64,000 nucleotides of DNA from Candidatus Yanofskybacteria bacterium RIFCSPLOWO2_02_FULL_41_13 (GTDB taxonomy: Bacteria; Patescibacteriota; Minisyncoccia; 2-02-FULL-40-12; GWA2-44-9): assembly GCA_001795735.1 (NCBI GenBank), contig MGKQ01000001.1:14808-78807 (forward strand), read 5' to 3'. A model generated the notes under the pieces. The model was not told where the DNA came from. It saw only the letters and a program-made list of their open reading frames with translations, and did not search any database. The stretch's first letter is position 1. Each line of letters opens with the position of its first letter. A program made the position numbers and the translations under genes. This document shows, piece after piece, positions 4,570-64,000 of the stretch.

Positions 4570-5354
4570 AGACTCTTGCCCTGGCCTCCATCGATCACTA
4601 TTGAAGCGCCGTTTACTAGCCGTGCCTTGTCCGAGCAGATAAATGCTACGACATTCGCCACTTCTTCGGGTGAACCAAGTCGTCCCAAAGGAAAATTATC
4701 CATAACAAATTTATTGAACTCTTCTGGATTTTCTTTTTGTTTTTTATCCAGTCCCGTGTCAGGTATCATTATCTGTCCGGGAGCAACGCTGTTAAAAGTA
4801 ATTCCATCCCTCACTAAATCATGTTTAACAGCCAAGCTTTTCATGAAGCTTATCTGAGCACTCTTTGCCATACTATACCACGGTCTTCCCCCCGCTTCAC
4901 GCCCGCATATAGATGATATAGTAACTACCCTTCCCCATTTTTCCTTCCTCATAACAGGCAAGCATCGCATTGTAAACCCAATAGCTGCCGTAACATTTTT
5001 GTCATAAACTTCCTTCCACACATTTTCGGAAGTTTTTTCAACATCATCACTGCCCCAGCTTCCTCCTCCACCAACATTATTTATTAAAATATGTAACTTA
5101 CCCCACACACCAATTATCGTGCTCGTCACACGTTCAATATCCCGCGGTTTTGTGACATCCGCCACCAGACCAAGCCCAGTAACACCCTGACCGTTTATTT
5201 CCTCAACTACCTCAGCGACCCTCTCTACATTTCTTGCACAGATAGCTACATTACAGCCCTCTGCTGCCAGAGCAATAGCTATAGCTCGGCCTATCCCGTG
5301 ACTACCGCCGGTTACTAATGCATACTTACCACTTAATCCTAAGTTCATGTCCAC
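4566..5354 (-). CDS. short-chain dehydrogenase/reductase (classical SDR)
   Basis: TGGSHGIGRAIAIALAAEG Rossmann motif. Confidence 0.8.
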   Translation of the reverse strand: MDMNLGLSGKYALVTGGSHGIGRAIAIALAAEGCNVAICARNVERVAEVVEEINGQGVTGLGLVADVTKPRDIERVTSTIIGVWGKLHILINNVGGGGSWGSDDVEKTSENVWKEVYDKNVTAAIGFTMRCLPVMRKEKWGRVVTISSICGREAGGRPWYSMAKSAQISFMKSLAVKHDLVRDGITFNSVAPGQIMIPDTGLDKKQKENPEEFNKFVMDNFPLGRLGSPEEVANVVAFICSDKARLVNGASIVIDGGQGKSL

Positions 5355-24788: not shown

Positions 24789-24817
24789 TTGACACTTTTT
24801 GACACCTTTTGATACTA
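24789..24817 (+). promoter_or_regulatory. promoter-like motif TTGACACTTTTTGACACCTTTTGATACT upstream of the pseB-like operon
   Basis: Near-identical to the motif at 2781-2808. Confidence 0.5.
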
Positions 24818-24843: not shown

Positions 24844-25830
24844 ATGCTCGATAATAAGACAATTCTGATAACCGGGGGGACGGGTTCATTCGGCAAAAAT
24901 TTTGCCAAATTTTTACTCAAAAGTAGCGGGCTCAAAAAGCTCATTATTTTCAGCCGAGATGAGTTCAAGCAATACGAGATGCAGAAAGAAATAAGCGATC
25001 CGCGTATACGTTTTTTTATCGGTGATGTTCGGGATTTGCCACGTCTTCAGCGTGCCTTCCATGGTGTTGATATCGTTATCCATGCCGCCGCGCTTAAACA
25101 AGTTCCTACGCTGGAGTACAATCCCTTTGAAGCAGTAAAGACGAATATAATCGGGTCGCAGAATGTAATTGATGCTTCAATTGACCAGAGTGTTTCAAAA
25201 ACACTGCTCATTTCAAGCGACAAGGCTGTTCAGCCAATCAACCTTTATGGGGCGACTAAATTGGCCGCCGAAAAGCTTTTTGTGGCCGCAAACTCTTATA
25301 CATCGCTCACAAAACGTAGTATCTTCAGTGCGGTACGCTATGGTAATGTAATGGGAAGCCGAGGCAGTATCGTTGAGGCGCTTCTTAAAAAACCTGCCGC
25401 AGAAAAGGTATTTATAACCCATCCGGACATGACTCGTTTTTGGCTTACCCTGTCAGAGAGCTTCCACCTTGTTTTATTTGCTATTAAGCATATGGGTGGC
25501 GGAGAAATAATCGTGCCTAAAATTCCCAGCATGAAGATAACCGAACTTTTTGATGCCCTTGCTCCGCGGGCTAAAAAAGTAATCACCGGCATACGACCGG
25601 GAGAAAAAATTCATGAAACGCTTTTAACTGAGCATGAGGCGCGCAATACCATATTAGTAGGGAATCATTTCGTTATTCTTCCTGAATTTACTTCAAAACC
25701 AAAATTTTTCGAACATTACTATACGCTGGGAAGCAAGCTTGATAACCATACTCCCTTCGCCAGTGATAACAACACAGTATGGCTAACCAAAAAAGAACTA
25801 AAATCAAAAATAAAACCGACGCTACTCTAA
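24844..25830 (+). CDS. pseB: UDP-N-acetylglucosamine 4,6-dehydratase (PseB/FlaA1-like short CapD family)
   Basis: KTILITGGTGSFGKNF and overall PseB/FlaA1-type extended SDR of about 330 aa. Confidence 0.75.
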   Translation: MLDNKTILITGGTGSFGKNFAKFLLKSSGLKKLIIFSRDEFKQYEMQKEISDPRIRFFIGDVRDLPRLQRAFHGVDIVIHAAALKQVPTLEYNPFEAVKTNIIGSQNVIDASIDQSVSKTLLISSDKAVQPINLYGATKLAAEKLFVAANSYTSLTKRSIFSAVRYGNVMGSRGSIVEALLKKPAAEKVFITHPDMTRFWLTLSESFHLVLFAIKHMGGGEIIVPKIPSMKITELFDALAPRAKKVITGIRPGEKIHETLLTEHEARNTILVGNHFVILPEFTSKPKFFEHYYTLGSKLDNHTPFASDNNTVWLTKKELKSKIKPTLL

Positions 25831-45803: not shown

Positions 45804-46862
45804 TTATAATTCCTTAATCCTATCTAGTAAATTTTTAGCTAAAATTTCTGATTTTAGTTCTTCTTGATACAGTCTATAACCATTCTCAGCTATCCTTTCC
45901 AGCTCTTGAGGATTGTTCTTTGCCCACAGTATTTTTTGAGCTAAAGACTGGGCATTAGCCGGTTCACAAGTGATACAGGTCTTCCCCGGCTCAAGAAGCT
46001 CAAGGATTCCCCTATTAGACGCGGTCAGATACGGTAAGCGCATGACCAATGACTCATAAACCTTATGGGGAATGGTTCTCTCCAGGCGCTCATGATCTGA
46101 TAATTGACCTATACTTAAGTGGCATTTCTGCATAAGACCCCTTAACTCCTCTACGGGGACAAAATTAGATGTAAGCTTAAGATTGACTAGCCTAAGCCCG
46201 TCTATCATTTTTTTTATTTTATCCAAAAGTTGACCGCCACCGCCATGCACAATAAACTCAATGTCATTATTTTCTAAGATTTTAGCCGCCCGAACTAAAT
46301 ATTCTACTCCCGTTTCTGGCAAAAAGGCCCCCCTAAATAAGACAGCGAATGTTGATAATTTTCCGGTTGAAGAGTCATAAAAAAATTTATCCTCATCAAC
46401 GCCAATCCAATTTCTAAATACTTTTTCTCTATTAACTTTAAATAGTTTTTTAAAATAATCTGCCTGGCTATCTGACTCAACAACGATTAGGTCAGAAATA
46501 TGTACGGCTATAAAATCAAGCAACCAATAATATCCGGCCTTAACCGAAAATCTGGAAGCCAAAGCCCTTGAGACTATCATTCTCTCATATACCGATAGAA
46601 CGGCGTTATAAATAATTTTTTTTCGGCAAAAAAAACGCAGAAATATAACTAAACCAGGACTATCATATCCAACGATAACTGTATCCGTATTTTTTGAGTT
46701 GCGTCTATAAAAAGACCAAAGAGCTAAAAAGCTGAAAGCTCCCCCGCCCTTAAGACCAAACTCCAGAACTTCTACCCCGTTCTCCCTTAGTCCTTTTATA
46801 CAGACCGAGTTAAGTGCATATTCCAGCCGCGAATTGCTTAAGTATATTATTTTTTTAATCAT
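45804..46862 (-). CDS. GT-B fold glycosyltransferase-like protein (GT4-like, or PseG-like UDP-sugar hydrolase)
   Basis: C-terminal domain FIVHGGGG...VYESLVMRLPYLTASNRGILELL resembles the GT-B nucleotide-binding domain. Confidence 0.45.
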   Translation of the reverse strand: MIKKIIYLSNSRLEYALNSVCIKGLRENGVEVLEFGLKGGGAFSFLALWSFYRRNSKNTDTVIVGYDSPGLVIFLRFFCRKKIIYNAVLSVYERMIVSRALASRFSVKAGYYWLLDFIAVHISDLIVVESDSQADYFKKLFKVNREKVFRNWIGVDEDKFFYDSSTGKLSTFAVLFRGAFLPETGVEYLVRAAKILENNDIEFIVHGGGGQLLDKIKKMIDGLRLVNLKLTSNFVPVEELRGLMQKCHLSIGQLSDHERLERTIPHKVYESLVMRLPYLTASNRGILELLEPGKTCITCEPANAQSLAQKILWAKNNPQELERIAENGYRLYQEELKSEILAKNLLDRIKEL

Positions 46863-46871
46863 CCCAGTATA

Positions 46872-47183
46872 TCAACTTCCAGAGCCAAACGCTTTGGTGC
46901 GTCTGTACTCTTTAAGCCTTAGACTTAAAAATATCCTACCCCTTGTCGTTTTAAGATAACCTTCTCTGCGTTTGGCATCTTGCTCATTAGTACAGCCTTC
47001 AAAATATATTAGCTTGAATGGTAACCTGAACTTTGTACTGAAATTGAAGCCTTTATTATGTTCATCTATTCTTCTGCGCAGGTTATTTGTGTAACCAATG
47101 TATAACCTATCGTCCTTGATACTTTGTAGCACATAGATATAGAAGAACATGCTGGAAGCTGTATTACTGGGCATGTGATTCAT
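46872..47183 (-). CDS. GIY-YIG domain small protein
   Basis: FFYIYVLQS...LYIGYTNNLRRRIDEHNKG. Confidence 0.75.
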   Translation of the reverse strand: MNHMPSNTASSMFFYIYVLQSIKDDRLYIGYTNNLRRRIDEHNKGFNFSTKFRLPFKLIYFEGCTNEQDAKRREGYLKTTRGRIFLSLRLKEYRRTKAFGSGS

Positions 47184-48033
47184 TTAGTAAAGTTAGTTCT
47201 TCCTCCCAATTATAATTTCCCCAATTTTTATATTTTTTTCTTAGTTCATCGTTCTCATGTCCGGGATGACAACCAAGTTCTATAATTTTATCTGGATATT
47301 TTTTCAATAACTCTTTTGCTGACTTGATGTCTCTATCGCTCAAATTTCCGGCATTAACAAAACCGACGGAAAAATCGTTGCAAACAAGGCCAGCCTTTCT
47401 TACTTTTCTTTTTGCTATCGCCGACAAAAAGTTTAGAAACAACAGTTGAAGTTTTCTAAATAATTTGCCACCCAAAAAGCTAAACGGTTCATTTACGATA
47501 CGAATGTATGGAATCTGGCGTTCCTTGGCCAGCTTAACAACAATTTCTGTAATTCCCGGTAGCAGATGTAAATGCTGATGGCTATTTATGAAAGATAGTT
47601 TGATACCGGCTTGAATGCACTTATTTAACTGAGCCCTTAGTTCCGCCTCCACTTTTTTGAGACTAATTAATCCTAAAATATATTTGATGAAAAATATCCT
47701 GTGGTTTTTAGGAAAAACGGTCTGAGTAATGGGTCTCTCCTCAACCAAAACCAGATGTATCCCGTACGAAGTCTCGCTCGCGCTAAGAGCACGAGTCCTT
47801 TGGACCTCGGCGAGGCTACTTCGTACGGGATGAACCCCGATGTTTGGAAGTTCAACTTCCAAACATCGGTGGACGGCATCATCAAAAGCCGGACCATTAG
47901 CCATCAGAGAGGCACCGTCTATCTTGGCTCCTTTTAATAAAAAAATGATTCCATCGTTAATGGATTTGTTAAGACCGAGATCGTCAGCAATAATCCTCAA
48001 GTTACCAATTCCCAAGTTACGACTTACAATCAA
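47164..48033 (-). CDS. YdjC/ChbG-family carbohydrate deacetylase (NaxD/HpnK-like)
   Basis: N-terminal IIADDLGLNKSINDGI and overall YdjC-like pattern. TTG start. Confidence 0.65.
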   Translation of the reverse strand: MIVSRNLGIGNLRIIADDLGLNKSINDGIIFLLKGAKIDGASLMANGPAFDDAVHRCLEVELPNIGVHPVRSSLAEVQRTRALSASETSYGIHLVLVEERPITQTVFPKNHRIFFIKYILGLISLKKVEAELRAQLNKCIQAGIKLSFINSHQHLHLLPGITEIVVKLAKERQIPYIRIVNEPFSFLGGKLFRKLQLLFLNFLSAIAKRKVRKAGLVCNDFSVGFVNAGNLSDRDIKSAKELLKKYPDKIIELGCHPGHENDELRKKYKNWGNYNWEEELTLLNESHAQ

Positions 48034-48061
48034 TTCCAGATTTACAATGTTTCAAAAGTTT

Positions 48062-48089
48062 GAAAATTGAAAATTGAAAATTGAAAATT
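48062..48089. repeat. heptanucleotide tandem repeat (GAAAATT)x4 in the spacer between the GT2 stop and the deacetylase start
   Basis: Seen in sequence. The last unit overlaps the GT2 stop codon. Confidence 0.8.
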
Positions 48090-49083
48090 ATAAAGCATGT
48101 ACTCCATATGGCGTTTCCTTTATACTCTCACCTTCAATATTGCATGTTTCCGAGACAATATACAAAGGCCGCCCCTTAACCTCATTGAACATTTTATACA
48201 AGTACTCCCCTACTATACCGAGAACCATCAGCTGAATACTGCCCAAGAACAAAACCAATATAACTAAAGTTGCCCAACCGGCGATCAAAGGATTAGGATT
48301 AACGTAATGATCAATAACGACATAACCGGAGAAGATTATACTTACAAACAGAACAAAGAGTCCCGCCCAGAAAGCCATCCTTAAAGGAAAGGCTGAAAAA
48401 GAGGTAACTCCGCTCAATACCAGTTTGATTAATCTTTTAATATTATATTTCGGCTTGCCGGCTATTCTTGATTCAGCAACATAGGGCACATACTTCTTCT
48501 TGAAACCAATCCACTGAATCATACCCCGCAGATATCTTTCTCTTTCCGGCAGTTTTTTCAAAGCATTAACCACTCTCCTCTTGTATAAAGCGAAGTCGGA
48601 AACATTTCTAAACTCCAGATTCGTGATCATGCTCATTAGCTTGTAAAAACCCTTTCCCCCGGCCTCCCTTAATTTAGAGTTCTGCTTGTTATCTAATCTT
48701 TCGCCTATAACAATATCGGCCCCTTCTTCGGCATGCTTAATAAATGTAGGTATCAGATGAGGCGGGTGCTGAAGATCTCCATCCATAGTCAGAACCATTG
48801 AACCCCTTGAGAAGTCCAGGCCAACATTAAAGGCAGCCTGATGGCCGAAGTTCCTTGATAGCTTAATTACCTTAAACTTAGAGTCCCTGTCGGCAGTTTC
48901 TTTTATCAATTCAAAAGTTCTATCGGTTGAACCATCGTCAACAAAAATAACCTCACAGCTTTTGGCGACGCTCTTGCAAACGCCGTTTATAGCTTCTATA
49001 AGAAAGGGTATTGCCTCCTCCTCATTAAAAAGCGGGATAACTATAGATAAATAAGTGCTTTTTGACATTCCATTATAATACAA
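48088..49083 (-). CDS. GT2 polyprenyl-phosphate glycosyltransferase (ArnC/GtrB/DPM1-like)
   Basis: LSIVIPLFNEEEAI...VDDGSTDRT...DGDLQHPP and two C-terminal TM helices. Confidence 0.8.
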   Translation of the reverse strand: MYYNGMSKSTYLSIVIPLFNEEEAIPFLIEAINGVCKSVAKSCEVIFVDDGSTDRTFELIKETADRDSKFKVIKLSRNFGHQAAFNVGLDFSRGSMVLTMDGDLQHPPHLIPTFIKHAEEGADIVIGERLDNKQNSKLREAGGKGFYKLMSMITNLEFRNVSDFALYKRRVVNALKKLPERERYLRGMIQWIGFKKKYVPYVAESRIAGKPKYNIKRLIKLVLSGVTSFSAFPLRMAFWAGLFVLFVSIIFSGYVVIDHYVNPNPLIAGWATLVILVLFLGSIQLMVLGIVGEYLYKMFNEVKGRPLYIVSETCNIEGESIKETPYGVHAL

Positions 49084-51490: not shown

Positions 51491-51610
51491 CCCGCTTAGA
51501 AGTAGTGCAAGCACCCACTACCACCATATGATGCCGCACACTATTAATTATTGACTGATATTCATATCATTTAACCCGTTTAGAGTACTTCTAACGGGAT
51601 TCATTTATTC
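51486..51610. mobile_element. roughly 125-bp terminal-inverted-repeat element, copy A (MITE-like)
   Basis: Ends CATCCCGCTTAGAAGTAG ... GTACTTCTAACGGGATTCAT. Near-identical to copy B at 61162. Overlaps the last codons of gene 51591..52541 and the start of the MTase gene. Confidence 0.65.
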
Positions 51611-52541
51611 TTTTTCTTGCCATATCAATCCCGTAAGCAAACATTTCATGGCGGCGAGGGCTGGTATAATGTTTCATAACCATATTATCACCGAGAAAAC
51701 CTTTAATTGCATACCTCTCCGTTGATAGGAATTTATAATTTACTTGGGCAAAAAGACAAGTCCATCCCTCCATCTCAATAAAATAATCGTTAAGGGGTCT
51801 TTTTGTATGTTCTAAATACTCCGAAAACTGACTGACAGTAAATTTATCTTTATTGATTACTATGTAACCGCCATTTAGCAAAGCCGCTTTATTTTCTTTG
51901 AGATTATACTTCTGAGTATAAAAGTCATCCATTTGCAGAAAAAAGTCCAGCTCATCGCCAATATGACGCTGAACCATGGCGTCATAATCGGTTTTTCCTG
52001 AAATAAAATCTACTACTTCTGTCGGTTCCTTATAATAAAGTATGTCTGAATCGCTGGCTATTACTTTTTTTGCCTTGCTAAAAACAATTATATTGGTCAG
52101 CTTATCGAAAAAAAAGTGGCATTCCAGTCTTGATTTTTTGATAATCTCGGGAATGCCGGGCATTTCTAAAATACGTTTAGTGGTCTCGTCTCGAAACATT
52201 ACTTTAACATTCGGGAACTTGCTTAGAATTAATTTTTCTGTGGCCTTGTCTATCGTCCCATCATCGTGAATAACCACAACCGGTTTTAGTTTTGAGTGAA
52301 AAAGGAAAGACCTAAGCATCCAAGCGAACATCCAAAGACCCTGGCCGTGCCTTGAGCAAATAGTGTGGAGCTCAAAATCAGGATCGGGAACATAATCAAA
52401 ACAAGGCAAGCGGGAAAATAAATAATTGCCGAAAAATCTGTTTTTAAAATACGGCCACCAATAGCGCGGACCGTATCCTCTCTCAATTAGATGCTTAAGA
52501 TAAAACAGTTCTACTTTTATTCTTTTAAAGTTTTTAACCAT
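51591..52541 (-). CDS. hypothetical protein, possibly GT-A-like glycosyltransferase (DxD)
   Basis: VVVIHDDGTID...SDSD. No family recognised with confidence. Confidence 0.35.
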   Translation of the reverse strand: MVKNFKRIKVELFYLKHLIERGYGPRYWWPYFKNRFFGNYLFSRLPCFDYVPDPDFELHTICSRHGQGLWMFAWMLRSFLFHSKLKPVVVIHDDGTIDKATEKLILSKFPNVKVMFRDETTKRILEMPGIPEIIKKSRLECHFFFDKLTNIIVFSKAKKVIASDSDILYYKEPTEVVDFISGKTDYDAMVQRHIGDELDFFLQMDDFYTQKYNLKENKAALLNGGYIVINKDKFTVSQFSEYLEHTKRPLNDYFIEMEGWTCLFAQVNYKFLSTERYAIKGFLGDNMVMKHYTSPRRHEMFAYGIDMARKRINESR

Positions 52542-57356: not shown

Positions 57357-58226
57357 ATGACTGAATTTGAAAAACTTATTCACGAATATTCATTTTTTTA
57401 CGACAAGGGTTTATTCTCCCAAAAAACCTCAAAGCTAGAACAGCGCTACCGGGAATACTTGAACTTGGAAAATCTTGCTTCAACCAAAGAAACAGCCCAG
57501 CTTATAGCTAAAGTGGCTAACCGACACCTTAAGAAAACCGGTCCCATAGATGCACTCGAGATTGGCTCCGGCATCGGCGGCCTGGCAGTCGCCATGGCAC
57601 GCCTTGGAAATCGCCATGTTACCGGCATTGAACCTGAAGCGCCGGCAGTCAAAGCTTCATCGCTTCGCGCTCAAAAGTACAAAAATATTAAGGCAGAATT
57701 TATACAAGGATACGGAGAAAAAATACCATTGCCGGATAGATCGTTTGATCTAGCCTATACTCAATCCGTCCTCGAACATGTAACAGACATTCAAAAAGTT
57801 ATATCCGAAGCATACCGTGTTTTACGGCCCGGAGGAGTAATTTACATTGAAACGCCAAATTATCTTTGGCCGGTGGAACAGCATTACAAAACTTTCTTCC
57901 CCCCCCTTCTCCTAAAACCGCTGGCACGCCTTTACCTAAGACTGCGAAAGAAGAATCCCGATGGCATTAACACCCTCAACTACGTCACGCCGATAAATAT
58001 CCGCCGATATCTCAAAAAGGCCGGTTTTATAAACATTACCGATAACACCTTGGAAGAATACGCCGGAAAGCTGAATGACCTTTCACGCATTAAACACAGG
58101 AGATACCTGCGGGTCCTTCTTAAAATCCCCCTCGCCTCTTCTATAATCAGCGGCGTAATTCATTCATTACTCAAACTTGGATTGTATCCGGGACTAAAAA
58201 TGAGTGCGCAGAAGAACATCATTTAA
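57357..58226 (+). CDS. class I SAM methyltransferase
   Basis: ALEIGSGIGGLAVAMA. Confidence 0.7.
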   Translation: MTEFEKLIHEYSFFYDKGLFSQKTSKLEQRYREYLNLENLASTKETAQLIAKVANRHLKKTGPIDALEIGSGIGGLAVAMARLGNRHVTGIEPEAPAVKASSLRAQKYKNIKAEFIQGYGEKIPLPDRSFDLAYTQSVLEHVTDIQKVISEAYRVLRPGGVIYIETPNYLWPVEQHYKTFFPPLLLKPLARLYLRLRKKNPDGINTLNYVTPINIRRYLKKAGFINITDNTLEEYAGKLNDLSRIKHRRYLRVLLKIPLASSIISGVIHSLLKLGLYPGLKMSAQKNII

Positions 58227-59371
58227 ACAAAAGACAATATATTCTTGACTCTGCGCTCCCAGGTATAATTCTTAACATCCTCCATGGCTTTTTTGGAAAG
58301 TTGAAAGCCCAAGTCGGGTTCACTTAATATTCTGCCTATCCCCCGGTCTAAATCGCCAGGTTTATTCGGGTTAACTAAAATTGAGTTTTGATCATTAAGG
58401 ACTTCTGCGATCGATGGTAAATTGCTCGCGACAATCGGACAGCCTGACGCCATGTATTCAAAAAGCTTAACCGGCGAAGTATTTAGATAAACCTTATCTT
58501 TAGCCGAATTAGGCAATGTCAGAACATCGGCCGCTTTTAGATAAACCGGAATTTCTTTATGCGATTTGTGACCTAAGATCAAAACGTTTTTCAACCCCCT
58601 CGCTTTTTCCCTAAATTTCTTGATATCATAGTCCATCCCCCCGACAAAAATAAATAACACAGCATCTCTTTCTTGGAAATTGGAAACTAGAAATTGGAAA
58701 TTCCTTGCTGTTTCCAACAAGGAATAAACTCCCTTCCACTCGAATAAGTGACCTGTGTACATGACTATCTTTGAATCTTGGGACAGACTTAACTTCTTTC
58801 GTGCTTCCTCCTTTGATATCTGTATATCAAATTCGTTCATATCAACACCGTCATGAGCAACTAAAACGTTATCAGCCGAAAAGCCGATATTTAAAAACTT
58901 GCCCCTGAGGCTTTCCGAAATAGTAACTACTTTTAAATTCCTGGCCAGAAATCTTCTGTAAAAAAATATTCTGGCATCAGAAAAATTATGAGCCTCAAAA
59001 ACAATTTTTTTATTGAAGAAGCTTAGAAAATATAACGGCCACTCGTCGCGGGAATAAATAATATCGGCTTTTTGGACAACGGCGTAAAAAGAAAGAAGCA
59101 GGGCAGATATAACTCCCTTAATGTTGACTGCAATTTTATCAAGCCGACCGGAAAAATAAAAATCCGGTGCCCATATTCTTTTTATCTTAAAATTTGTTCT
59201 GACGGAATAGTATGAGCAGAGCTCATCTCTGATGTGATTGTCTCTGAAAGGATACAGTAGAGTCACCTCAAGACCCTGCAATGCAAAAGTTTCGCACATC
59301 TTAGCAATTTGGACACCATATGCTTTTTCTGTCGGCAACCTTAAATTAGCAATAAATAAAAGTTCTCTCAC
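58223..59371 (-). CDS. GT4 glycosyltransferase containing an in-frame heptamer repeat tract
   Basis: GT4 C-terminal EYMASGCPIVASN. Tract TTGGAAA-TTGGAAA-CTAGAAA-TTGGAAA at 58673-58700 encodes NFQFLVSNFQ. Confidence 0.75.
   Translation of the reverse strand: MRELLFIANLRLPTEKAYGVQIAKMCETFALQGLEVTLLYPFRDNHIRDELCSYYSVRTNFKIKRIWAPDFYFSGRLDKIAVNIKGVISALLLSFYAVVQKADIIYSRDEWPLYFLSFFNKKIVFEAHNFSDARIFFYRRFLARNLKVVTISESLRGKFLNIGFSADNVLVAHDGVDMNEFDIQISKEEARKKLSLSQDSKIVMYTGHLFEWKGVYSLLETARNFQFLVSNFQERDAVLFIFVGGMDYDIKKFREKARGLKNVLILGHKSHKEIPVYLKAADVLTLPNSAKDKVYLNTSPVKLFEYMASGCPIVASNLPSIAEVLNDQNSILVNPNKPGDLDRGIGRILSEPDLGFQLSKKAMEDVKNYTWERRVKNILSFV
58673..58702. repeat. imperfect heptanucleotide tandem repeat (TTGGAAA family, 4 units) inside the GT4 coding sequence
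   Basis: Seen in sequence. Confidence 0.8.
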
Positions 59372-60067
59372 TTATTTGTAGTTAGACCTGGAAAACTTCC
59401 TAACTAACGGCTTGACTAGCTCTTTAATAAACCGAGGCGGTTTTATGTATATTGAAGATGTGACCATATTTTTAAGAGACAAAGTATACAAACTTTCAAC
59501 TGCATCTTTCAAGGAGCTTCTCCTGCATTTTGTGGCAAAGAGTATGTTATCTATAAAGCCTGCGTTTCTAAATTTCCTGGATCTAAGTATGTATCTTGAG
59601 ACGACTTTCCTTACATCGGGATAATTAAACGTTGCATCATGATATGCAATAATTCCGCCTTCTCTCAAATAAGGCTCCCAAAGCAGAAAATCAGTTTCGG
59701 CCATTTTATAAGTATGATCGCCGTCAATCCAGAGAAAATCAACCGGTTTATTCCAGTTCTTGCTGGCCTCCTCTGATGTTGCAACCACAACCTCAACAAA
59801 CCCATCAACATTATGTTTATTCAGGTTGCTCTTAAGCTGACCTAGGGCCAAATCGTCAAAATATTGAGGATCTATAGCGTAAACCCTTCCTTTTTTATCT
59901 GAATTCTTCAGAGCATCGGCCAATACCACGGTTGAGCGGCCATAAAGACTGCCTATTTCTACTATCGTGCCGCCGTTTTTACGAACAACATCATACAAAA
60001 AATCAGCCTCTCTCTTAGAAAGAAAGCCTGGGATATCATTTAAAATACGGTCCAGATCTTTTGCCAT
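59372..60067 (-). CDS. class I SAM methyltransferase (CmcI/O-MT family-3-like)
   Basis: TIVEIGSLYGRST...WIDGDH pattern. Confidence 0.6.
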   Translation of the reverse strand: MAKDLDRILNDIPGFLSKREADFLYDVVRKNGGTIVEIGSLYGRSTVVLADALKNSDKKGRVYAIDPQYFDDLALGQLKSNLNKHNVDGFVEVVVATSEEASKNWNKPVDFLWIDGDHTYKMAETDFLLWEPYLREGGIIAYHDATFNYPDVRKVVSRYILRSRKFRNAGFIDNILFATKCRRSSLKDAVESLYTLSLKNMVTSSIYIKPPRFIKELVKPLVRKFSRSNYK

Positions 60068-60122
60068 ACTTTTTAGGTTATACCATTTCCGCTAAAAAAC
60101 AAACCGGCAGTATATAACAAAT

Positions 60123-60932
60123 TTATATTTTTTGAGCCACGACTAATATCTCAAAGCCAAAATGCTTTGAGATATATCTGTTTGATATAGAATCTAATAA
60201 TCTAACACTCACGTCTAGTATCTTTGCCGCAAACTTCATAAATTTAGGGTGATACCGAGAAAGACAATATGCAACGAAAAATCCGTCAGTAGCCAAAACT
60301 TTACAATTAGATGCCTTCGCAAGATCTTTTAATTCTTTGATCTTGAAAGATTTTTCAAAACCATATTCATAGTTTTTGCCCTTGATCATCTTAAATAATT
60401 TATGCGGGTTCCAGTAATTATTTACTGATACAATTAAAATTCCGTTTTTCCTCAACATTTGTGCCATAACTGCAAAAGCCCTTCTATAATCTTTTAGGTG
60501 CTGTATCGTTGCATCGGAAAAAACTATATCAAATTGTCCATCCTGAAATGGTAGATTAAAAACATCCGCTTGTTTAAATTCAACATTAGCTATATTTAAA
60601 TGAGCGGCAAGCCCTTTTGCCACTGCAAGTGACTCCTCCAGAATATCCGTTAGCACAAACTTGGATTCCGGAAAATCTCGAGCCAGTGCGATGCCATATC
60701 TCCCCGTACCTGTTCCGATATCAAGGAAACTAAACTTTTTAGAAGGTACATATTTCTTTATTATCGGATATCCTCTGACGAATAGCTGATTTTTAAGAAT
60801 TTTATCAACCTTGCTAAGACGAGCCTGTTTATCCCAGACATTGCTCCAGATAGTATTAATTGATTTTTGAGGTTTTGTATTTTCCATCTCAGTCATTAAT
60901 AAGAGAAGCATAGATCTCAATCTGCTTATCAA
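60123..60932 (-). CDS. class I SAM methyltransferase
   Basis: FLDIGTGTGRYGIALA...DIVFS. Confidence 0.7.
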   Translation of the reverse strand: MISRLRSMLLLLMTEMENTKPQKSINTIWSNVWDKQARLSKVDKILKNQLFVRGYPIIKKYVPSKKFSFLDIGTGTGRYGIALARDFPESKFVLTDILEESLAVAKGLAAHLNIANVEFKQADVFNLPFQDGQFDIVFSDATIQHLKDYRRAFAVMAQMLRKNGILIVSVNNYWNPHKLFKMIKGKNYEYGFEKSFKIKELKDLAKASNCKVLATDGFFVAYCLSRYHPKFMKFAAKILDVSVRLLDSISNRYISKHFGFEILVVAQKI

Positions 60933-62252
60933 TTAAAACTTTAGAATTATACTTTTCTTCCACCAATTTCCTGCCGTTTGCCCCTAATTCAGTTAAAAGC
61001 TCTGGATGGTCTATTAAGTATAATATCTTTTCGGCCAGCGCTCTAAAATCGCCCTCGTTTACAAGGAATCCGTTATAGCCATCCCCCACCTGATCAGGAA
61101 GACCGCTGTGTCTTGTAGTAATGACAGGCAACCCGGTAGCTAAAGCTTGTGAAATAATTACATTCATCCCGTTAGAAGTAGTGCAAGGCACCCACTACCA
61201 CCGTACGGTGCCATACATTACTAATTATTGTTTGATTGACATTCATGTTATTTAACCCGCTTAGAGTACTTCTAACGGGATTCATATTATTCAGTATCTC
61301 CATCCTTGGCCGTTTTTGACGGCTGAACAAAGAAGCTCATATTCTGGAAAAAATCTAATATCCGTTCTATTGCCATAAATCCTTTAAACTCCACAACGTC
61401 ATTCAAGCCCAATGTTCCCGCTAAAGAATGGATTTTTTCTCTCAACGGCCCGTCTCCAATCATATAGCACCTGAATTTTTTTGAGGTCTTTTCTTTGACA
61501 ATGGCCAGAGCGCGCAAGAGGTCGTCAAAACCTTTTTTCTCCACAAATCTGCCGACCGAAACAATATTTATTTCTTTATTCTCGGATATCGCCCTCTCCT
61601 TAAAATTATAGTTATCCAAGTTTATGCCAATGGGATGAACCAGTACTTTTTCTGAAGAAAATCCGTGTCCTACTACCCTTCGCTTCATGTCCTCAGACAT
61701 AACGAAGAACAAAGCTGATTCTTCTATTAATCCCCGATAGATAGCAATCCCTTTTTCTTTTATTCTTTTACTGACATCCTGGCCGTAAAGTGAAGTGATA
61801 AATTTTTCCTTAATACCCAAAACTTTTTTTATCATGACAAAGTTAGACCCGACATTGCCAAAGTGACAATGATACAAATCGTATTTTTTACCGAAAAAAG
61901 GCTTTAAATCCCAGAACAAAACTTTAAAATTAGATGCAATTTTAAAAATAGATGCCGGCCTATAGAGTAACAGTCTGACTAACCGAGGTCCAGCCATAAT
62001 AATTCTCAGTATTTTGTTAGCCGGAACGCTAAGATACATTGTCTTTTTGTCTAACCCGTATTGAAAATACCTCTTGGATATATGGTCCTTGTTCGCCCCG
62101 CCTCGATTAAAGGCGTAAATCTCAACCCCGACCCCCCGGTCGATCAGATCACAAGCCTGATCAATAATAAAAGTTTCGGATATTTCCGGAAAACTGCCTA
62201 CAATAAAGGCGACTCTTAAGTTTTGCTTTTTATTTATATTAACTGAACTCAT
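60889..62252 (-). pseudogene. GT4 glycosyltransferase split into an N-terminal fragment (61287..62252) and a C-terminal fragment (60889..61167) by insertion of the roughly 125-bp repeat element
   Basis: N-fragment ends ...FVQPSKTAKDGDTE-stop. C-fragment resumes GMNVIISQALATGLPVITT. Together they rebuild the conserved GT4 E-G-x-G...EAMA-G-PVI core. Confidence 0.55.
61162..61292. mobile_element. roughly 125-bp terminal-inverted-repeat element, copy B (MITE-like), inserted in a GT4 gene
   Basis: Aligns end to end with copy A (TCATCCCGTTAGAAGTAGTGCAAGGCACCCACTACCACC ... TTTAACCCGCTTAGAGTACTTCTAACGGGATTCAT). Contains the 12-bp perfect palindrome CACCGTACGGTG. Confidence 0.65.
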
Positions 62253-63424
62253 AGACTGTGAAAAAAATTATAAAACTTGGTGGACACGACCTGATAGCCA
62301 TAAGCATTGTGAACAAACTCCCGGCCTGCCCTGCCCATAGATATTCTTTTTTGTTCATCGTTAGCTAATAACGCCATGGCCTCTTTCAATTCCTTGTGGT
62401 CATCATAGGATTTAATAAGAATGCCAGTTTTGCCGTCTAATACAATTTCAGTTATCGAACCAGAAGTAGTGCTGATAACCGGCAATTCCATAGACGACGC
62501 TTCCTGAATGGAATACGGCAATTGGTCTTCCCATCCGCCATAGGGAATACTCGGATACAAAAAAATATCAGAACTATTGTAGAGCTCCCAGACTCCGTCC
62601 CGCTCAAGCCACGGTACTCTAATAATAAAATCTTTTAGTTTCAGCTCTTCAATCATCGACTCTATCATCAGGCCATATTCCCCCTCACCAAGACCGGCGA
62701 GAATTAAACGGACGTTTGGTATGGTTTCTGAAATTTCCTTAAAAGCCCTGATAATCAGATGGACCCCCTTGCGGTGAGCAACCATTCCGGCAAATCCAAA
62801 AACTACGTAATCTTTCAGGTCTATACCCTTAAAAGATTTTTTTGAATAATCTCGCTTAAAGAAATCTGTATCAAGACCCATCGCCGGTATAACAACCATC
62901 GGTTTATCCGTAATAGATTTCATCACTTTCTCTGCCCGGATACTTCCGCACACAACTCCGTCACATAATGCCATATTCAAGTTAATAACAAACTTTTGGA
63001 TAGCGCCCCTCAATCCTTTAAATTTACTCTCATAAGAAACATTCTCCCAAGTAAAAACGATGAACTTAGCTCCAAACAGTTTGGCAAAAATACACTCATA
63101 TAAAGTAGTCAGAAGATTCGGCTCACTGATACTAAGAATTATATCCGGCTTCTGCTCACGAAGAATAAATGGAAACATCGGCATCCAGCCCTTTAAGATT
63201 CCGCCGATAAGAGGATAATTTGAGTGGTGAAAAAAAGCCTTGGTAGTATGGACATTTTTGCCGGGAGTAGGTTTGAATACATACCTTCCGCCCTTTATCG
63301 GCCACCTCTCAGGTACAAGAAAATGAATATCATCTGTACGGGGATAACCGCTGAATGTTTTCATATAACTCTCATTCGCAAATGTATAGCCGGATATTAA
63401 AATTTTTAGATTACCGGGTGTCAT
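62249..63424 (-). CDS. GT4 glycosyltransferase
   Basis: C-terminal EDQLPYSIQEASSMELPVISTTSGSITE (E..EA...PVI.T). Confidence 0.75.
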   Translation of the reverse strand: MTPGNLKILISGYTFANESYMKTFSGYPRTDDIHFLVPERWPIKGGRYVFKPTPGKNVHTTKAFFHHSNYPLIGGILKGWMPMFPFILREQKPDIILSISEPNLLTTLYECIFAKLFGAKFIVFTWENVSYESKFKGLRGAIQKFVINLNMALCDGVVCGSIRAEKVMKSITDKPMVVIPAMGLDTDFFKRDYSKKSFKGIDLKDYVVFGFAGMVAHRKGVHLIIRAFKEISETIPNVRLILAGLGEGEYGLMIESMIEELKLKDFIIRVPWLERDGVWELYNSSDIFLYPSIPYGGWEDQLPYSIQEASSMELPVISTTSGSITEIVLDGKTGILIKSYDDHKELKEAMALLANDEQKRISMGRAGREFVHNAYGYQVVSTKFYNFFHSL

Positions 63425-64000
63425 TGTCTGATTATATTGCTTATTTTATTTATCAAATTATCAAGATTATGGTTATGGATGACATAATCCCTTAAATCTG
63501 CCGTATTCTGTTTTTTGCCGGAAATCTCAATTTTTTCGGCTAACTGAGTTGGGTCATTCTCGTTAAATATTAGCTCTTTCGGTAAAAAAGAGCGAGATGA
63601 ATCGTTTGAACTTAGGACTTTTATCCCGCAAGCCATCGCCTCAAGAAGCACCTTGTCCACGCTTCCGGTTTTTGAAAGGTGAATAAAAATGTCGTGTGAT
63701 TGGTAGTATACCGGCAAATCTTTGTGATTCACTTTTCCAACAAAATTAAATTGATCTTGTAACTTGTAACTTGTAACTTGTAACTTTATTTTTTTTTCAT
63801 ATTCTTTGTCGCTCTCCAGCGCCGCTTCTCCTGCTATAGTTACGGAAAAATCAACCCCCTTACTCTTTAGTAACCTTGCCGCATCGATCAATACTTCATA
63901 ATTCTTCACCAGTGCAATTCTCCCCACGCTCAATATCTTAAATTGGAAATTGGAAATTGGAAATTGGAAATTGGGCTTGAAAAGCCCGGTGTCTATTCCA
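63421..64000 (-). CDS. GT4 glycosyltransferase, 5' end beyond the window; contains two heptamer repeat tracts in frame
   Basis: LLEAMACGIKVLSS C-domain motif. The frame stays open upstream through (TTGGAAA)n to the window edge. Confidence 0.65.
   Translation of the reverse strand, partial: GIDTGLFKPNFQFPISNFQFKILSVGRIALVKNYEVLIDAARLLKSKGVDFSVTIAGEAALESDKEYEKKIKLQVTSYKLQDQFNFVGKVNHKDLPVYYQSHDIFIHLSKTGSVDKVLLEAMACGIKVLSSNDSSRSFLPKELIFNENDPTQLAEKIEISGKKQNTADLRDYVIHNHNLDNLINKISNIIRQ
63756..63783. repeat. heptanucleotide tandem repeat (CTTGTAA)x4 inside the GT4 coding sequence (encodes KLQVTSYKLQ)
   Basis: Seen in sequence. Confidence 0.85.
63941..63975. repeat. heptanucleotide tandem repeat (AATTGGA / TTGGAAA) x4.7 inside the same GT4 coding sequence (encodes PNFQFPISNFQF)
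   Basis: Seen in sequence. Followed by a GGGCTTGAAAAGCCC hairpin. Confidence 0.85.

Follow-up and report, generated by a model that had tools for sequence, protein, structure and literature searches.

Heptanucleotide tracts in GT4 glycosyltransferase genes of Candidatus Yanofskybacteria: candidate slippage-prone switches in a surface-glycan cluster

The glycosyltransferase gene pglE of Neisseria meningitidis is phase-variable through a heptanucleotide repeat (PMC7157529). Heptanucleotide simple sequence repeats (SSRs), mostly tracts of 6-38 units, are also present in Haemophilus influenzae, where they occupy the hmw promoters as well as positions within hmw1A and a TonB-receptor gene; the class of repeat used by a species has been suggested to depend on its DNA metabolism (PMC2651432). 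Filamentous cyanobacteria contain short tandemly repeated repetitive (STRR) sequences, which usually have 7-bp units and whose function is unknown (PMC2670836). Here we describe heptanucleotide tracts located within glycosyltransferase family 4 (GT4) genes in a 64-kb stretch of DNA (the window) from Candidatus Yanofskybacteria of the Rifle aquifer, which is the reverse complement of contig MGJR01000027.1 (GCA_001794375.1). With a probability of about 0.6, we consider these tracts to be slippage-prone frameshift switches in surface-glycan genes, i.e., contingency-like loci.

The Candidate Phyla Radiation (CPR)/Patescibacteria represent a large and mostly uncultured share of bacterial diversity and are thought to be attached to host cells. 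Small-genome pathogens rely on stochastic switching of this kind. If it also operates here, ON/OFF switching of several glycosyltransferases would provide tiny genomes with cheap surface-glycan diversity, which might matter against phage or for host recognition.

Heptamer tracts in and beside the window

Three heptamer tracts are present in the coding sequences of two GT4 genes. They lie within a few bases of the positions given in the initial annotation of the window, which was also right about their being in frame and about their peptides. The first gene (58223..59371, minus strand, GTG start) is an open reading frame (ORF) of 382 aa that contains the imperfect tract TTGGAAA TTGGAAA CTAGAAA TTGGAAA TT at 58673..58702 (4.3 copies, 82% matches in Tandem Repeats Finder, TRF). 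The coding-strand unit of this tract is AATTTCC and the encoded peptide NFQFLVSNFQ corresponds to residues 224-233. The second gene, also on the minus strand, is cut by the window edge, and the window holds the 3' 579 nt of this 343-aa gene (63421..64000); the complete gene was found at 4920-5951 of L001, a 21-kb locus of contig MGJR01000027.1 that extends past the window edge and was used as the reference. Two perfect tracts (TRF 100%) are present in this edge GT4 gene: (CTTGTAA)x4.4 at 63756..63786, with coding-strand unit AAGTTAC and peptide KLQVTSYKLQ, and (AAATTGG)x5.0 at 63940..63974, with coding-strand unit CCAATTT and peptide PNFQFPISNFQF.

The three peptides had been assigned to the linker before the C-terminal domain. 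This is the case for PNFQFPISNFQF, which is located in the interdomain linker between GIDTGLFKP and KILSVGR; NFQFLVSNFQ and KLQVTSYKLQ are both inside the C-terminal domain (in the loop that follows helix C-alpha1 and in the helix preceding the third strand). Likewise, the tracts do not form the single repeat family that had been proposed for the two genes, as TTGGAAA and CTTGTAA are alike in period and not in sequence. A common protein-binding motif, TTGNAAN, was considered and rejected since the units of other species share no motif.

Both tract-bearing genes proved to be of the GT4 type, as had been proposed. The translated part of the edge gene matches Pfam Glycos_transf_1 (4.3e-28), and the 382-aa protein, which is encoded identically on 24-29 contigs, matches Glycos_transf_1 (6.9e-22) and Glyco_transf_4. 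An AlphaFold (AF2) model of the latter has a GT-B fold with a predicted local distance difference test (pLDDT) score of 92.7, and its top Foldseek matches are MshA, GlgM, BshA, PimA, and WaaG (template modeling score up to 0.80). Two Rossmann-like domains and a C-terminal Glycos_transf_1 domain, the features of this class, were thus recognized by PF00534, PF13439, the AF2 model, and Foldseek. In the model, NFQFLVSNFQ covers the end of a helix (214-225) and a disordered loop (226-236), with pLDDT below 50 at residues 230-233. We count this position in a predicted low-confidence surface loop in favor of the switch reading.

Within the window, perfect tandem repeats with a period of 5-12 and at least three copies were detected only three times, and all three have a period of 7. 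Two-copy heptamer duplications are as frequent as in shuffled sequences (five vs. ~4.6); three of the five reach at least four copies, for which the chance is ~1e-7 according to a hand estimate. The heptamer tracts of the window are not chance products. Their distribution is also uneven, with three tracts in 6.1 kb of GT4 ORFs and none in 55 kb of other ORFs. No match to the window was found in an Rfam search at the gathering threshold.

A fourth tract, which had been overlooked in the first reading of the sequence, is intergenic: the perfect (TTGAAAA)x4.3 at 48060..48089, between a GT2 gene and a YdjC-like gene. It abuts the GT2 gene (48088-49083, minus strand), with a 2-nt overlap at the stop codon; relative to the YdjC-like ORF (47164-48033), it occupies positions 27-56 nt upstream. 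A promoter scan revealed no convincing minus-strand promoter at this tract. The start of the YdjC-like ORF, which adjoins the tract, reads TTGTAAG TCGTAAC TTGGGAA TTGGTAA CTTGAGG (47985-48033) and, judged by eye, looks like a decayed heptamer array.

Additional tracts were found beyond the window edge. A 387-aa GT4 gene of the reference locus contains (AGGTACA)x4.3 and (AAGTTAC)x5.1, a 385-aa GT4 gene (L001 3570-4727) contains (AAATTGA)x3.7 and a long decayed tract, and the edge GT4 gene itself has an additional decayed tract. In total, four of the seven GT4 genes in the reference locus carry tracts. The surrounding surface-glycan cluster encodes several GT4 and GT2 transferases, methyltransferases, a DegT aminotransferase, an epimerase/dehydratase, a thiamine pyrophosphate enzyme, a NUDIX protein, and a radical S-adenosylmethionine enzyme. 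Its methyltransferases and sugar-modifying genes are without heptamer tracts, as is the GT4 gene at 45804-46862.

A unit of 7 nt does not divide into whole codons, and a tract inside a reading frame therefore shifts that frame when it gains or loses one unit or two. Tracts of 28-35 nt could misalign by whole units during replication, and a change of one or two units would then lead to a translation stop within ~30 codons and remove most or all of the C-terminal domain. This domain binds the nucleotide-sugar in GT4 enzymes, and its loss would therefore turn the transferase OFF. A change of three units would keep the gene ON and add or remove seven residues in the loop. Each tract might then act as an ON/OFF switch that is inherited and could in principle be reversed, and several tract-bearing GT4 genes together could generate cells with differing surface glycans. 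Simulation of copy-number changes gave the predicted result for every tract: ±1 or ±2 units led to a stop within ~30 codons and ±3 units stayed in frame.

Copy-number variants in the Rifle population

We compared more than 20 contigs of the same population, which came from NCBI, ENA, and JGI assemblies made with three pipelines and are 99.9-100% identical. The tracts are identical in most of them. In L011 (ENA ERZ27254836), which is 99.76% identical to the reference over 3,734 nt, the single gap corresponds to one AAGTTAC unit at 63756-63786 and splits the edge GT4 gene into a 238-aa product (P0028) and a 103-aa ORF. In L040 (ENA ERZ27254752), a 50-kb contig with no mismatches over 7,853 nt, the single 7-nt gap corresponds to one AGGTACA unit of the 387-aa GT4 gene just outside the window, which is split into ORFs of 220 aa (P0127) and 143 aa. 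The products simulated for the loss of one unit are exactly P0028 and P0127. Tract-length differences among relatives, which had been proposed as a check, were therefore found in the form of one CTTGTAA/AAGTTAC unit fewer in L011, and whole-unit polymorphism is present at both 63756-63786 and the external AGGTACA tract.

Apart from these two deletions, comparison of 19 near-identical loci revealed no true indel; tracts account for ~2% of the DNA in these loci. Apparent indels in L004, L005, and L007 were rejected as scaffold N-gaps. When the members of 90%-identity clusters from this population were examined, frameshift-truncated proteins were observed for tract-bearing genes only, and none were found in the tract-free controls, a 392-aa GT4 gene and a 289-aa methyltransferase gene. 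The tracts are thus indel hot spots, their natural one-unit deletion alleles truncate the enzymes, and they are enriched in GT4 genes across the lineage (see below). Since natural variants that lost one unit carry truncated genes, the tracts behave as mutational on/off switches. The proposal that a single unit turns the transferase off stands as far as truncation is concerned, both in simulation and in the natural 238-aa and 220-aa products; loss of enzyme activity is the probable consequence, judging from the domain removed.

Each variant was found on one contig only, which is what assembly or sequencing errors might look like. Such an artefact is extremely unlikely, however. Each variant lacks one whole unit, cleanly removed from otherwise identical sequence, and one of the two lies on a 50-kb contig; moreover, the tracts are identical in more than 20 independent assemblies from three pipelines. 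The tracts (30-36 nt) are also far shorter than the k-mer implied by the contig names (k141) and the assumed read length, and repeat collapse is therefore not expected.

Other alleles of the tract-bearing genes are present in this population. In L005, from one Rifle assembly, a scaffold gap (5180-5340) is flanked by a divergent allele of the edge GT4 gene, ~16-80 nt upstream of the tract at 63940-63974. At the linker position this allele has a different heptamer, (TCAAAAA/G)x4, which encodes FKNQKSKVKS and indicates that alleles coexist, or strains are mosaic, at the linker site. P0134, a read-derived variant of the 385-aa GT4 protein P0130 (L001 3570-4727), is identical to P0130 from residue ~83 on. 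Over the first ~80 residues the two diverge, and P0134 is without the heptamer-derived low-complexity stretch IDNCKIDNSLKIKNCKLKI; it represents a mosaic allele within a 90% cluster.

These mosaic alleles, with another linker heptamer in L005 and a replaced N-terminus in P0134, could suggest that the tracts serve as recombination handles, in which ~30-nt sequences common to paralogues promote shuffling of domains or modules between GT4 genes. Several tracts are indeed shared, AAGTTAC by the 343-aa and 387-aa genes and AATTTCC by the 343-aa and 382-aa genes, and tracts flank structural modules. Their length is also close to the minimum for RecA-dependent recombination. On the other hand, the units mostly differ among the tracts of one genome, no recombinant with a breakpoint in a tract was found, and the variants observed are simple one-unit deletions. 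We therefore regard a role in recombination as quite improbable.

Tracts across related Patescibacteria

To analyze the distribution of heptamer tracts, we used 102 related loci (22 from species-level genomes, 80 from metagenome contigs). Homologues of the edge GT4 protein (58-73% identical) were detected in Yanofskybacteria, Taylorbacteria, and other Patescibacteria, and have a hypervariable linker with peptides of 7-residue period, which are encoded by heptanucleotide repeats in the DNA of these loci. Period 7 dominates the tandem repeats: it was found 116 times in the metagenome loci, compared with 9, 8, and 9 times for periods 6, 8, and 9, and makes up 34 of 58 repeats in the genome loci. 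The 116 metagenome tracts have a median length of 4.4 copies and a maximum of 7.6, and only two of them round to at least six; 23 have a purity of at least 95%. In agreement with the proposal that tracts concentrate in glycan genes, 132 of the 151 period-7 tracts lie within GT4 coding sequence, and GT4 ORFs contain 5.2 tracts per 10 kb, other ORFs 0.64 (~8 times fewer), and intergenic DNA 6.

Among 89 distinct orthologues of the edge GT4 gene, 43 have at least one tract, always at one of three positions (residues ~72, ~166 in the linker, and ~225-235). At the linker site, heptamer tracts with unrelated units were detected in 19 of the 89 genes; units and peptides are unrelated between lineages, and period and length are retained. 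The occurrence of pure tracts at fixed sites with differing units and peptides suggests continuing slippage and homogenization, and the high purity of the linker tracts (many 95-100%), together with their differing units and peptides, suggests selection on the repeat structure and not on the peptide. Moreover, a heptamer tract can only grow by 7-nt steps, which implies that these genes probably passed through out-of-frame states and then returned to ON.

At the other two hot spots, the peptides are fairly conserved among orthologues (SLKLKVKSLKL at residue ~230 and QLFTFYFLLFT at residue ~72). This would be expected if the proteins needed peptides of 7-residue period, such as SLKLKVKSLKL and QLFTFYFLLF, as helices or linkers, with the nucleotide period as a relic. 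Such a protein-level function appears very unlikely, because the linker peptides are unrelated (NFQFPIS, TNDQRPT, SEKLKVK, NYELRIM, NPKSEIR) although the 7-nt period and 4-5 copies are kept. A peptide can be encoded without a nucleotide purity of 95-100%, and at the linker there are no orthologues that encode the same peptide in scrambled synonymous codons. The tract peptide of the 382-aa enzyme, in turn, is predicted to lie in a low-confidence loop, and many orthologues of this family have a short loop without the insert or tract. A short loop without a tract is the ancestral state of the 382-aa family, in which many lineages carry a heptamer-encoded insert. The tract at 58673-58702 is a decayed copy of the NFQFPISNFQ insert of the orthologues P0142 and P0191; back-translated by hand from the peptide, and not read from their DNA, this insert gives a perfect AATTTCC repeat.

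Searches for further length variants in other lineages gave no additional case. A metagenome pattern scan in which both tract lengths were allowed to vary produced no match in a collection without the focal population (best protein match 73% identical). Short members of ten 90%-identity clusters were rejected as tract variants because they are contig-end partials or unrelated to the tracts, and ~500-nt "insertions" in some orthologue loci turned out to be joined matches to an upstream paralogue.

Several observations weigh against the reading of the tracts as switches in active use. In consensus assemblies, which do not give read-level frequencies, ON alleles are present on ~22-25 contigs per single OFF contig (~96% of assemblies), and only two frame-split copies of the tract-bearing GT4 families (L011 and L040) were found, compared with ~190 intact copies. 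No copy-number variant of the tract at 63940-63974 was detected in ~22 contigs and no length variant of that at 58673-58702 in 29 contigs; the intergenic tract (48060-48089) did not differ among the four loci displayed out of 22 contigs read. The phase variation proposed in the initial annotation thus gains support from the polymorphism in L011, and none from these two invariant coding tracts. All observed copy changes are deletions. Among 14 near-identical locus pairs of other lineages, no heptamer copy change was detected, and the one indel present is a 6-nt difference within a hexamer repeat. In addition, 4-5 copies is low in comparison with classical contingency loci, which suggests that switching rates may be low, and given the similar densities of intergenic and GT4 tracts, a mutational bias, instead of selection, could account for the 7-nt preference.

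The main alternative is that the tracts are a non-adaptive by-product, in which a bias in replication or repair makes and homogenizes 7-nt repeats and small palindromes that are tolerated in GT4 loops, and OFF alleles are ordinary deleterious mutants kept rare. This explanation is possible, though we hold it to be somewhat unlikely. It would account for the scarcity of OFF alleles and the near-universal ON state, for an intergenic tract density matching that of GT4 coding DNA, for the disordered loop predicted around NFQFLVSNFQ, for the decay of tracts such as that at 58673, and for the perfect in-frame palindromes that other orthologues have gathered at the same linker site, which are another product of template-switch errors. 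However, purifying selection in coding DNA should then favor periods of 3, 6, and 9, whereas period 7 leads by more than 10:1; neighboring non-GT4 ORFs, which presumably also have loops, have ~8 times fewer tracts; and orthologues that are only 55-73% identical still have pure tracts at a common site. The lack of an excess of two-copy heptamer duplications in the window also means that no general birth bias for 7-nt repeats is visible.

For the switch reading, the arguments in favor of selection over tolerance are the frame-breaking period that dominates coding DNA, the enrichment of tracts in GT4 genes, the persistence of pure tracts at fixed sites with turnover of their units, and the out-of-frame intermediates noted above. 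We infer that switching is reversible, frequent enough to matter, and maintained by selection (e.g., for phage escape or host attachment). This hypothesis is testable with the existing Rifle aquifer reads. A broader and more doubtful proposal is a lineage-specific heptamer "glycan phasome" in Yanofskybacteria and related Patescibacteria, in which dozens of 4-5-copy tracts and in-frame palindromes at fixed GT4 loops might be kept by dedicated or strongly biased slippage and give ultra-small episymbionts combinatorial glycan variation that serves attachment to hosts or escape from phage; the strict period and narrow length range would then reflect an undescribed property of replication or repair.

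The palindromes were observed in nine loci of other lineages (L078, L057, L020, L024, L025, L067, L073, L074, and L086), in which the linker site matching 63940-63974 is occupied by perfect in-frame palindromes with stems of 13-21 bp, for example ATCCTTGAGGCCAGGCCTCAATCCTTGAGGCCTGGCCTCAAGGAT. A recurrent family, CGAGGTCGAACCTC...GAGGTTCGACCTCG, encodes SRSNLKEG.SRFDLG. Stems of at least 9 bp are present in 11 of 76 distinct linkers.

Other repeats of the locus and comparison with known systems

Another GT4 gene (60889-62252, minus strand) is split into ORFs of 321 aa and 100 aa by a 119-nt insert (61171-61289), in every population contig that shows this region. The insert is palindromic, with 19-nt terminal inverted repeats (ATGAATCCCGTTAGAAGTA), and looks like either a small palindromic repeat element, similar to miniature inverted-repeat transposable elements or repetitive extragenic palindromes, or a stop/hairpin/start cassette that causes gene fission. 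It was also considered as an invertible switch; this was rejected because inversion between the 19-nt arms leaves the frame unrestored, according to a hand reading. An element of at least 70 nt resembling the insert is located at ~51545-51610, in the intergenic gap after the gene at 51591-52541. The 13-mer CCCGTTAGAAGTA occurs four times in the window, with 0.05 occurrences expected.

Outside the window, copies of an AT-rich intergenic element (~125-150 nt) precede GT4 genes (L001 585-1074, 2280-2433, and 4782-4906). Two of these copies are 93.6% identical, degenerate heptamer runs are present inside the element, and one inverted copy is interrupted by a 121-aa gene for a 23S_rRNA_IVP (four-helix-bundle) protein. 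Two intergenic tandem repeats with 10-nt units contain a -35-like hexamer, TTGACACCTT x2.4 at 2781-2804 and TTGACACTTT x2.8 at 24789-24816, the latter ending 28 nt upstream of an ATG at 24844. Finally, a 103-aa ORF (46872-47183, minus strand) overlaps the end of the YdjC-like gene and is called a GIY-YIG nuclease-domain protein in some assemblies.

Within the literature library searched, no paper was found that ties CPR/Patescibacteria to repeat-mediated phase variation of glycosyltransferases; the nearest match is a 9-mer PTD repeat protein in Gracilibacterium (PMC6851277). With regard to known repeats, the Yanofskybacteria tracts resemble cyanobacterial STRRs in being a lineage-wide family of 7-bp tandem repeats. 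The units of STRRs belong to a few conserved sequences, and most STRRs lie between genes. The tracts described here have many units (CCAATTT, AAGTTAC, AGGTACA, ACCAACG, AAATCCG, and many more) and are mostly in frame within GT4 coding sequence. A mechanistic question is common to both, namely why some lineages make almost solely 7-nt repeats.

A glycosyltransferase whose repeats change its output is also present in Helicobacter pylori: its fucosyltransferase gene has 21-nt (7-aa) repeats, the number of which varies by strain and alters the glycan made. Unlike the GT4 heptamers, these repeats are always in frame, and they tune the enzyme and do not switch it off.

The phasomes of H. influenzae, Campylobacter jejuni, and Neisseria are similar to the present system in that hypermutable repeats are located in lipopolysaccharide, capsule, or glycosylation genes, one class of repeat is favored per species, and some repeats lie in promoters. 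Classical contingency tracts are usually longer and near the 5' end, and ON/OFF mixtures among isolates are frequent. In contrast, the tracts of Yanofskybacteria are short and internal and occupy conserved structural positions, and assemblies show them ON in nearly every case.

The closest system is pglE. The initial annotation had set the heptamers apart from better-known tract types, and pglE provides a precedent for them (PMC7157529): in both cases, a 7-nt repeat lies within a glycosyltransferase gene (in pglE, one that extends a surface glycan), and the number of units sets the frame ON or OFF. The differences are that pglE has one tract per gene, whereas the Yanofskybacteria genes have up to three each, in mid-gene loops and with 4-5 copies; that the host of pglE is a host-restricted proteobacterial pathogen, whereas the present one is an uncultured groundwater CPR bacterium; and that switching of pglE has been demonstrated experimentally, whereas here it is represented by two natural one-unit deletion alleles. 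The switch logic is therefore classical, and heptanucleotide phase variation of a glycosyltransferase was already known. The new features, compared with these systems, are the lineage of the host, a strict period of 7 nt, the 4-5 copies, the occurrence of several tracts per gene at conserved loops, and the alternation of tracts with in-frame palindromes at one and the same site.

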